In this document: piece after piece, positions 3,297-30,682 of the stretch
How the letters are laid out: every line of letters begins with the position of its first letter
Position numbering within the stretch: position 1 is the stretch's first letter
Source of the DNA: a virus
Lineage: Duplodnaviria > Heunggongvirae > Uroviricota > Caudoviricetes
IMG/VR virus record: IMGVR_UViG_2526164662_000036
Strand: one strand, 5' to 3'
Length of the DNA: 30,682 bases
The notes under the pieces: model-generated
What the model saw: only the letters and a program-made list of their open reading frames with translations
Database searches by the model: none
Told to the model about the DNA's origin: nothing
Position numbers and translations under genes: made by a program

Positions 3297-3872
3297 CTAC
3301 GGCAGTGCTGGCCATTCAATATCCTGTGCAGTTGACGTATCAACACGGTTCAGCAACACCCGATACTTTTTCCAGGCTTCCAGCAATGAGGTTTCTTCCT
3401 CCGTTGCGATTTCCAGAGCTACAGCATCCTGAAGTGGCGCAATATGCTCACTGGCTACCTGCATCAGGCTGTTTTTTGTTTCTTCCGCCTCTCGGATCCG
3501 GAACAGTTTTTCTGCTTCTGCATCTTTCACCCAGGCTGTGCCGTTCCACTTCTGAAACTCCCCTTCCGGCGATAACCAGGTAACATTTTCCGGTAACGGA
3601 CCGAGTTCAGAAATAAATAACGCGTCCCCTGACGCTACGTCATAAACCGTTTTACCCCGATGGTCTTCAACGAGATGCCACGATGCCTTATCACTGTTGA
3701 AAACAGCCACAAAGCCAGCAGGAATATCTGGTGGTGCAATATCGGTACTGTTTGCTGGCAGACCTGTATGAGGCGGAATATATGCGTCACCTTCACCAAT
3801 AAATTCATTAGTTCCGGCCAGCAGATTATAAATTTTTATGGTCCGTGGTTGTTCACTCATTCTGAATACCAT
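3297..3872 (-). CDS. tfa: tail fibre assembly protein Tfa
   Basis: 191-aa ORF immediately downstream of stf with ATGA start/stop overlap; sequence resembles lambdoid Tfa chaperones. Confidence 0.8.
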
Positions 3873-29557: not shown

Positions 29558-29968
29558 ATGGCTCAGGCTGCCATTTTTAAAGAAATATTCGATCAAGTGC
29601 GTAAAGATTTAAACTGTGAATTATTTTATTCTGAGCTAAAACGTCACAATGTCTCACTTTATATTTACTATTTAGCCACAGATAATATTCACATTGTGTT
29701 AGAAAACGACAACATAGTGTTAGTAAAAGGACTCAAAAAGGTTGTAAATGTTAAATTCTCCAGAAACAAACATCTTATAGAGACCTCCTATAATAAGTTG
29801 AAATCAAAAGAAATCACATTTCAACAATACAGGGAAAATCTTGCTAAAGCAGGAGTTTTCCGATGGGTTACAAATATCCAGGAACACCAAAGATATTACT
29901 ATGCCTTTGATAACTCATTACTATTTACTGAAAGCATCCAGAAAACTACACAGATCTTACCACGCTAA
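29558..29968 (+). CDS. ydfO: YdfO/YbcV-family (DUF1398) prophage protein
   Basis: 136 aa from the ATG at 29558 ([19 protein letters not shown]...); GGAAGG about 8 nt upstream; the track ORF starts 5 codons earlier at 29543. Confidence 0.65.
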
Positions 29969-30119
29969 ACCATAACGTCCGGCTTCTCTCACTCCTGAGC
30001 CGGACTGCATTGGTTTAATAAAAACCATCAACAATTGTGATTTAGATATTCGGAACCATTCAAATATAACAAAACCCCGAAAAAACGAGGTTTATGGATA
30101 AATTTTATTATTGAATACA

Positions 30120-30295
30120 TCAGATTAAATTAATCTTGACATCATAGCTTTCAAGACCCGTCATTTTTTCCCGTGCGGTAAACTGAATACTGGTAACTTC
30201 TTTCCCGGTCTTTTTCTTAAGTTCAATAATTTTTTTGTTATATATTCAGAAATATCTGCTTCTGCTTTTGTTTTTAAGTTTTCAATATTCATCAT
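30120..30295 (-). pseudogene. gnsB: gnsB/gnsA-family gene interrupted by a frameshift in a homopolymeric A7 (plus-strand T7) tract
   Basis: Frame 0 gives MMNIENLKTKAEADISEYITKK then nonsense and an early stop; the adjacent frame after the A7 run at 30230-30236 gives IIELKKKTGKEVTSIQFTAREKMTGLESYDVKINLI, the conserved Gns C-terminus; AGAGGAA Shine-Dalgarno before the ATG ATG. Confidence 0.7.
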
Positions 30296-30463
30296 TTCCT
30301 CTTTTAGTCTGTTATGACTTTCCAGTTACACAGTAAGTCGATTATATGGTGCAAACGTGTAAAAGATAAGATGAAACATCGCAATAATCAACATACGATA
30401 GTCTAAATTTTACACAAACAGACAAAGAGAATTTTCCTGAATTATCAATACAATAGCATCAAA

Positions 30464-30682
30464 TCAACTCAAGAGCCTTATTGCTGCTTCCAGAATTTCT
30501 TCTGAAGTAACATGTCGATCCGCGGCTACATAAATGACTTTATGATCTCCGGTCAGAGATGGAAACCCTGCGGCCATTACAGTAAGGTGTGTTTTTTCGC
30601 CATTTGGATATTCACGCATGATGGTGTTAACTCCAGTCATCGCTGGCACTACCACTGCTGGTTCAGAGTTAAAAAAAACTAT
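30464..30682 (-). CDS. 3' end of an unidentified gene whose 5' part lies beyond the window edge
   Basis: The frame is open from the window end (…IVFFNSEPAVVVPAMTGVNTIMREYPNGEKTHLTVMAAGFPSLTGDHKVIYVAADRHVTSEEILEAAIRLLS); the track's 63-aa ORF begins at an internal GTG. Confidence 0.4.
   Translation of the reverse strand: MVFFNSEPAVVVPAMTGVNTIMREYPNGEKTHLTVMAAGFPSLTGDHKVIYVAADRHVTSEEILEAAIRLLS

Follow-up and report, generated by a model that had tools for sequence, protein, structure and literature searches.

A single-base contraction of an A8 run as the probable cause of gnsB loss in a Qin-like prophage

Introduction

Is a small prophage gene whose reading frame breaks at a run of seven A's switched on and off, rescued during expression, misread by the sequencer, or simply inactivated? 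The gene is gnsB, and it lies near one end of the 30,682-nt stretch of viral DNA that we analyzed here (IMG/VR record IMGVR_UViG_2526164662_000036), which we call the window. A first-pass annotation, made from the DNA letters and their open reading frames, had described a gnsB-like gene disrupted at an A7 homopolymer and had raised the possibility of phase-variable or slippage-dependent expression. According to sources that cite Sugai et al. (2001), overexpression of GnsA or GnsB raises the level of unsaturated fatty acids, and these sources also describe suppression of the fabA6(Ts) and secG-null cold-sensitive phenotypes by overexpressed GnsA or GnsB. In the literature, GnsA is also listed as a toxin that forms a pair with ymcE (ymcE-gnsA).

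We compared the locus with its counterparts in other genomes, surveyed the length of the run in complete Escherichia coli genomes, and weighed the ways in which the broken gene might still be expressed. We put the probability at roughly 70% that the window carries a loss-of-function (pseudogene) allele of prophage gnsB that arose when a genuine slippage mutation removed one A from an A8 run.

Results

A one-nucleotide shift separates the two halves of gnsB

The minus strand of the window reads ATG ATG AAT ATT at the start of gnsB and ATA ACA AAA AAA TTA TTG at the break, and the A run is exactly seven nucleotides long. In the normal gene, the tract is made up of the codons ACA AAA AAA ATT, which encode Thr-Lys-Lys-Ile. 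When we aligned the window base by base with E. coli O26:H11 strain 11368, A7 versus A8 was the sole difference in 202 columns. The 88-nt sequence around the tract is also the same in K-12 MG1655 except that the run is A8, and K-12 and O26 11368 encode the same GnsB protein (WP_001019606.1). Adding one A to the window yields a protein identical to the K-12 and O26 GnsB. The conserved Gns C terminus, KKIIELKKKTGKEVTSIQFTAREKMTGLESYDVKINLI, becomes readable after a one-nucleotide insertion at the run and ends at the native stop codon. The 44-aa ORF that is actually encoded lacks the conserved FTAREKMTGLESYDVKI core. Therefore, the 22 native codons and the conserved C terminus are indeed in frames that differ by one nucleotide at the A7 run, as the first-pass annotation had it, and its gene identity, exact break site, and A8 repair were all correct, as judged by the O26 11368 alignment and by the family match described below. 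It had further predicted an intact 58-aa protein from an A8 tract. The repair holds, but that length was counted from the first ATG; RefSeq begins the protein at the second one (30292) and gives it 57 aa. The features of the locus are listed in Table 1.

Table 1. Coordinates of gnsB and of the features around it in the window
Feature	Position	Strand	Description
gnsB (ydfY) with 1-nt frameshift	30120..30295	-	Small protein gene of the GnsA/GnsB family (PF08178) in a Qin-like lambdoid prophage
gnsB start and stop codons	First ATG 30295-30293; RefSeq-type ATG 30292-30290; native-frame stop TGA 30122-30120	-	
A7 homopolymer	30230..30236	-	Plus-strand T7; deletion site, one nucleotide shorter than the normal A8
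Truncated ORF as encoded, 44 aa	30161..30295	-	MMNIENLKTKAEADISEYITKK (22 native residues) followed by LLNLRKRPGKKLPVFSLPHGKK (22 out-of-frame residues) and a stop
Shine-Dalgarno-like AGAGGA	30297..30302	-	Just 5' of ATG ATG; read from the sequence
Intrinsic-terminator-like hairpin	30062..30093	-	8-bp stem, 6-nt loop, and T-rich tail, 27 nt 3' of the gnsB stop; stem-loop at 30093-30072
ynfN	30464..30682	-	Upstream neighbor, cut by the window end; from the annotation of equivalent loci
DUF1398 (ydfO-like)	29558..29968	+	Downstream convergent neighbor; from the ORF list and equivalent loci

The repaired 57-aa protein matched the PF08178 profile over its full length (positions 1 to 54 of 54, 120.3 bits, E = 3.1e-35). 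The protein as encoded matched only profile positions 1 to 32, with 50 bits, and is thus a truncated member whose core can be read only in the other frame. Because the frame breaks at A7, we filed this gnsB copy as a pseudogene allele of the PF08178 family. It is the ortholog of K-12 gnsB, since the DNA is identical apart from the tract and the gene order is the same. The paralog GnsA (yccL; crystal structures 4XO1 and 4XO2) also belongs to PF08178, and the repaired GnsB aligns with it over residues 1 to 56 (E = 5e-20). The two proteins share, according to the sources that cite the overexpression work, the effect on unsaturated fatty acids. However, gnsA lies at another chromosomal site, is 63 to 65% identical to gnsB in E. 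coli, Shigella, and E. albertii, and has A6 rather than A8 at the equivalent position (CAA AAA ATC).

Intact gnsB is under purifying selection across species, with dN/dS values of 0.04 to 0.23. The frameshift would exchange the conserved C-terminal two-thirds of the 57-aa protein for 22 unrelated residues. Because this conserved part is replaced, Gns activity is expected to be lost in the A7 allele, and judging from the predicted product, the protein would presumably be nonfunctional. The translation start signals of gnsB are intact. A terminator scan found one site, against 0.3 expected in shuffled sequences. A promoter scan of the interval between ynfN and gnsB found no sigma-70-like site, and an Rfam search gave no match at the gnsB locus.

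The gene lies in a prophage that is itself decaying

The gene order cspI-ynfQ-ynfR-ynfN-gnsB-DUF1398/ydfO, followed by packaging and tail genes, is conserved among equivalent loci. In the window, the Qin-type cold-shock gene cluster is represented by ynfN, and cspI-ynfQ-ynfR lie beyond its end. The gnsB gene of the K-12 Qin prophage (b1550) has the same synteny and nucleotide sequence except for the tract, which is A8 in K-12, whereas the ORF in the window is broken after codon 22. The surrounding prophages also differ: the window holds a more complete element of the O26/4012 type, and K-12 holds a remnant.

A 2,532-bp IS66-family element (ISEc23-like) sits inside the phage tape-measure gene at positions 14771 to 17302. 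It is 99.8% identical to copies in strains 4012 and MEI2B-1023, is flanked by an 8-bp target-site duplication (CAGCATTT), and has imperfect terminal inverted repeats that begin with GTAAGCGT. Because of this insertion in the tape-measure gene, we regard the prophage as defective or decaying. The nearest relatives of the whole prophage, in strains 4012, MEI2B-1023, and E110019, have an intact gnsB with A8. Matches with 100% coverage to 4012, the MEI strains, and E110019 were only apparent, as an ISEc23 copy located elsewhere in their prophage had been joined in, and we discarded them.

Two side observations concern other parts of this prophage. In E. coli E110019, 21 bp of the DUF1398 gene (TTACTGAAAGCATCCAGAAAA) are tandemly duplicated relative to the window at about position 29925, which adds 7 aa to the protein. 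Near the ydfK/pinQ end of the prophage, positions 3331 to 3529 on the minus strand gave a full-length Rfam match to the candidate small RNA IS009 (RF02111; 219 bits, E = 8e-54).

One-base length variants recur on many haplotypes

We surveyed 5,426 complete E. coli genomes with tract-centered queries of 87 to 89 nt and counted exact matches; with queries of this length, a single indel drops a match below the ≥99% identity band. The locus was carried by 2,139 records. Exact matches to A8 came from 1,425 records, including K-12 MG1655, and those to A7 and A9 came from 41 and from four or five records, respectively. Among the exact matches, A8 thus accounts for about 97%, A7 for 2.8%, and A9 for 0.3%. 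The comparison of A8 with A7 in homologs that had been proposed at the outset therefore identified A8 as the norm.

The A7 form was found on at least seven to eight different flank haplotypes when 1.66 kb of flanking sequence was compared. On the K-12-type haplotype, all three lengths occur with zero substitutions in the flanks: A8 in MG1655, A9 in FORC 064, and A7 in ER1709, RM10042, two DEC drafts, and one JGI metagenome. On the O26-type haplotype, A7 (the window and strain 01_3327) and A8 (O26 11368) likewise occur with zero flank substitutions. Because the variants are spread over many haplotypes and because flanks without a single difference carry mixed lengths, we conclude that the length changes are young, recurrent, and independent, a pattern that marks homopolymer slippage. 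Replication slippage had been listed as a possible origin of the break, and the recurrence of one-base changes in both directions supports it. The truncated products of 43 or 44 aa were encoded on at least 1,000 contigs from NCBI, ENA, JGI, and Logan read assemblies.

One complete genome matches the window perfectly around gnsB, that of E. coli 01_3327 (NZ_CP074961.1), in which KIL96_RS15125 is the same allele; over 461 nt, A7 included, identity is 100%. However, the rest of that prophage differs from the window by 97 mismatches in 13.4 kb, is 97.5% identical in the tail region, and lacks the ISEc23 insertion.

Most A7 calls are probably real

Undercalling of homopolymers is a known sequencing error mode, and the source DNA of the window might truly be A8, with one A dropped by the sequencing platform or the consensus caller. 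Sequencing or assembly error was rightly named as a possible origin by the first-pass annotation, and the public data contain cases that look like it. In UTAK-1, gnsB and rzpQ have both gone from A8 to A7 within 5 kb (locus coordinates 2542 and 819). In E300082, gnsB and the T8 run upstream of cspI are both contracted within 5 kb (locus coordinates 2542 and 1547). These double contractions suggest systematic homopolymer undercalling in the two assemblies. Since such a second 8-to-7 contraction turned up in two of eight sampled complete genomes with A7, part of the 2.8% is probably artifactual. Some public assemblies of the gnsB locus are riddled with indels, and the nearest relatives of the window are without exception A8.

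To set the A7 fraction against other runs, we expressed the shortened fraction of a tract as exact n-1 records versus exact n records. For the gnsB A8 run, this fraction was 2.80% (41 versus 1,425). It was 0.44% (16 versus 3,624) for an A8 run in the core gene ybiO, where even a core gene thus yields some A7 calls, and 0.72% (3 versus 411) for an A8 run in rzpQ of the same prophage. The A7 form of gnsB is therefore about 4 to 6 times commoner than the shortened form at the control A8 tracts. Fisher's exact test gave an odds ratio of 6.5 (P = 1e-11) against ybiO and 3.9 (P = 0.01) against rzpQ, P values that are optimistic and overstate the significance because genome records are not phylogenetically independent. 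The ybiO fraction bounds the error baseline, so most of the gnsB A7 calls are probably real.

The window itself bears few marks of a faulty assembly. Compared with strains 4012 and MEI2B-1023, the gnsB tract is its only indel across 13.4 kb at 99.3% identity, so no further homopolymer indel separates it from these close relatives. The adjacent run, a plus-strand A8 at 30671 to 30678, has its usual length. Many independent assemblies share the allele, among them JGI metagenomes and Logan contigs built from reads. Together with the excess over the control tracts, these observations argue against a dropped base, and we consider that explanation unlikely for the window. We infer that the base is truly missing from the source DNA, with replication slippage as the cause.

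A third candidate for a neutral control, the T8 run near the start of ynfN, was dropped. T7 was found there in 417 records versus T8 in 1,043 (28.6%). Polymorphism is thus common at this run, but the figure gives no rate, as the K-12 lineage, from which many records come, is fixed for T7. The start region of ynfN, ATG AAA AAA ATC ATA GTT TTT TTT AAC, is length polymorphic, and T8 keeps a 76-aa ORF open. The plus-strand A8 at 30671 to 30678 in the window corresponds to this T8 in the 5' end of the annotated ynfN. In K-12 MG1655, ynfN has T7 and is marked "frameshifted" by PGAP. The T run upstream of cspI also varies among loci (T7, T8, or T9).

The run does not behave as a contingency tract

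The length of the run toggles the reading frame, with A8 in frame and A7 and A9 out of frame, and both shifted variants exist. It is therefore natural to ask whether the A8 run is a contingency tract that switches the GnsB "toxin" or lipid modulator off and on, or whether recurrent inactivation is positively selected. The events recur on many haplotypes, and A7 is enriched 4- to 6-fold over matched A8 tracts. A8 has also been kept in E. coli, E. ruysiae, and five Citrobacter species, even though synonymous divergence is saturated.

However, the two states are not both common: 1,425 records carry A8, against 41 with A7 plus four or five with A9, so the OFF state amounts to only 2.8% plus 0.3%. 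A run of eight A's is on the short side for a classical contingency tract. Where one study contributed several related assemblies (three SW0716xx assemblies, CX08/CX12, and MLI108K1/K2), these were uniformly A7, and none of the sets was mixed. In a contig collection with one genome per species, which we used for the cross-species comparison of the tract, three of the eight Citrobacter lineages encode Thr by the synonymous ACC or ACT, which leaves an A7 that stays in frame, and gnsA has A6. AAA is simply the dominant Lys codon of the gene, accounting for 64 to 91% of its Lys codons, and the tract is not kept beyond what the amino acid sequence needs. The enrichment of A7 is equally explained by relaxed selection, and the T8/T7 polymorphism near ynfN is far commoner (28.6%) without need of a switching role.

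Against this evidence, a contingency tract or selected inactivation is very improbable. We regard the A8 run as a moderately mutable by-product of encoding Thr-Lys-Lys-Ile in a gene that prefers AAA. The suggestion of phase-variable expression was thus not borne out, with A8 at about 97%, assemblies from the same study uniform, and the run not preserved across species.

Frameshifting or slippage would restore at most traces of GnsB

The broken gene might still make a meaningful amount of native GnsB, through -1 ribosomal frameshifting or through insertion of an A by RNA polymerase. The mutant mRNA reads ACA_AAA_AAA_UUA and holds A_AAA_AAA, a perfect -1 slippery heptamer (X_XXY_YYZ) in the productive frame. 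A -1 shift on it reads AUU AUU GAA and leads into exactly the wild-type sequence ...ITKKIIELK.... This route had not been among the options listed by the first-pass annotation. In E. coli, A_AAA_AAA is one of the heptamers whose unstimulated frameshifting exceeds 0.10%; the background is about 0.055%, and the ratios are 2 to 10 (Sharma et al., PMC4066793). C-AAA-AAA gave 25 to 60% frameshifting in pDEST17, a T7 overexpression vector (Belfield et al., PMC1851650).

The programmed -1 sites of dnaX and of the IS1/IS3 family (A_AAA_AAG or A_AAA_AAA) likewise place a slippery heptamer of this type in the productive frame. However, the gnsB A7 site has neither a downstream hairpin or pseudoknot nor an upstream Shine-Dalgarno-like stimulator, and its split arrangement is not conserved. 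The minimum free energy of the downstream RNA was -13.4 kcal/mol versus a shuffled mean of -13.9 (z = 0.19), and no structure was predicted within about 17 nt of the heptamer. Inspection of the letters upstream of the heptamer revealed no GGAGG-like element. About 97% of the E. coli alleles and every ortholog in other species form a single ORF, and a cross-species scan found broken copies only in indel-ridden E. coli or Shigella assemblies. Because the fold is no better than shuffled and no Shine-Dalgarno-like element lies upstream, only unstimulated trace frameshifting is expected. Judging from published reporters, spontaneous -1 frameshifting would yield at most trace amounts of native GnsB, on the order of 0.1 to 0.5%.

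Rescue by transcriptional slippage, as at 9A/9T sites (Baranov et al. 2005) or in Citrobacter rodentium tssM (PMC4256274), likewise involves an A run at the frame break, and as in those genes, one extra A in the gnsB mRNA would restore the ORF. However, the gnsB run is only 7 nt long. For E. coli RNA polymerase, no rescue was detectable for runs of fewer than seven T's or fewer than eight A's (Koscielniak et al., PMC6260861), and the run length relevant for slippage is about 9 nt, or 8 in some genomes (Baranov et al. 2005, PMC1088944). The run was described at the outset as long enough for slippage by RNA polymerase, but at 7 nt it falls below the published threshold. Since frameshifting would give only traces and A7 is below the slippage threshold of RNA polymerase, the allele is best regarded as near-null. 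With neither a frameshift stimulator nor polymerase slippage below eight A's (PMC6260861), slippage-dependent expression of gnsB finds no support. Given a two-frame arrangement that is not conserved, an RNA free of stimulators, and a run too short for the polymerase, meaningful native GnsB from the A7 allele is highly unlikely.

Databases annotate the same allele in different ways

PGAP labels the identical allele "frameshifted" in NZ_CP074961.1, ER1709, RM10042, AZ155, and GZ04-0086, and it also marks A9 alleles as "frameshifted" pseudogenes. In newer PGAP runs, the A7 allele instead appears as a CDS of 41 aa (WP_349812768.1; locus coordinates 2532 to 2657) that is named "GnsA/GnsB family addiction module toxin." We considered whether this CDS is a sign of real expression of the C-terminal frame and rejected the idea, since it starts at an ATA directly after an in-frame TGA. 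We regard WP_349812768.1 as an annotation artifact. PGAP thus handles one allele inconsistently, as a pseudogene in some records and as a 41-aa CDS in others.

Genes identical or nearly identical to E. coli gnsB or gnsA also appear in records labeled Veillonella, Mucilaginibacter, Lysinibacillus, and Bacteroides thetaiotaomicron. The Veillonella parvula and Mucilaginibacter sp. records are metagenome-assembled genomes. Contamination or misbinning in public assemblies is the most likely source of gnsB and gnsA under such foreign species labels.

Discussion

The broken gnsB of the window is best explained by the loss of one A from the A8 run through strand slippage, most likely during DNA replication. 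Since gnsB is accessory and dispensable, one-base variants of the run would keep arising and be retained in a few percent of strains. The excess of A7 at gnsB is in line with relaxed selection on a prophage gene that is dispensable, and no special mechanism is required. The allele is already known, as RefSeq flags the identical allele as a pseudogene, and it is an ordinary gene-inactivating mutation. Nothing indicates a purpose-built genetic switch.

It is conceivable, though quite improbable, that the A8 run is a recurrent inactivation hot spot perhaps favored by selection, with A7 attenuated rather than null because spontaneous -1 frameshifting on A_AAA_AAA would restore a little native GnsB. 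If this were true, tract length would in effect let lineages adjust how much they make of a membrane-lipid modulator or toxin linked to cold shock. Under the slippage-mutation reading that we prefer, the allele carries little biological weight, as another homopolymer frameshift that hits a dispensable gene in a prophage already in decay. The wider use of the locus is as a measure of such changes. Length polymorphism and assembly error are both common at the 8-nt A/T runs of this region (in gnsB, at the 5' end of ynfN, upstream of cspI, and in rzpQ), and the fractions of 2.8%, 0.44%, and 0.72% provide a small calibrated comparison of tract shortening in accessory versus core genes.
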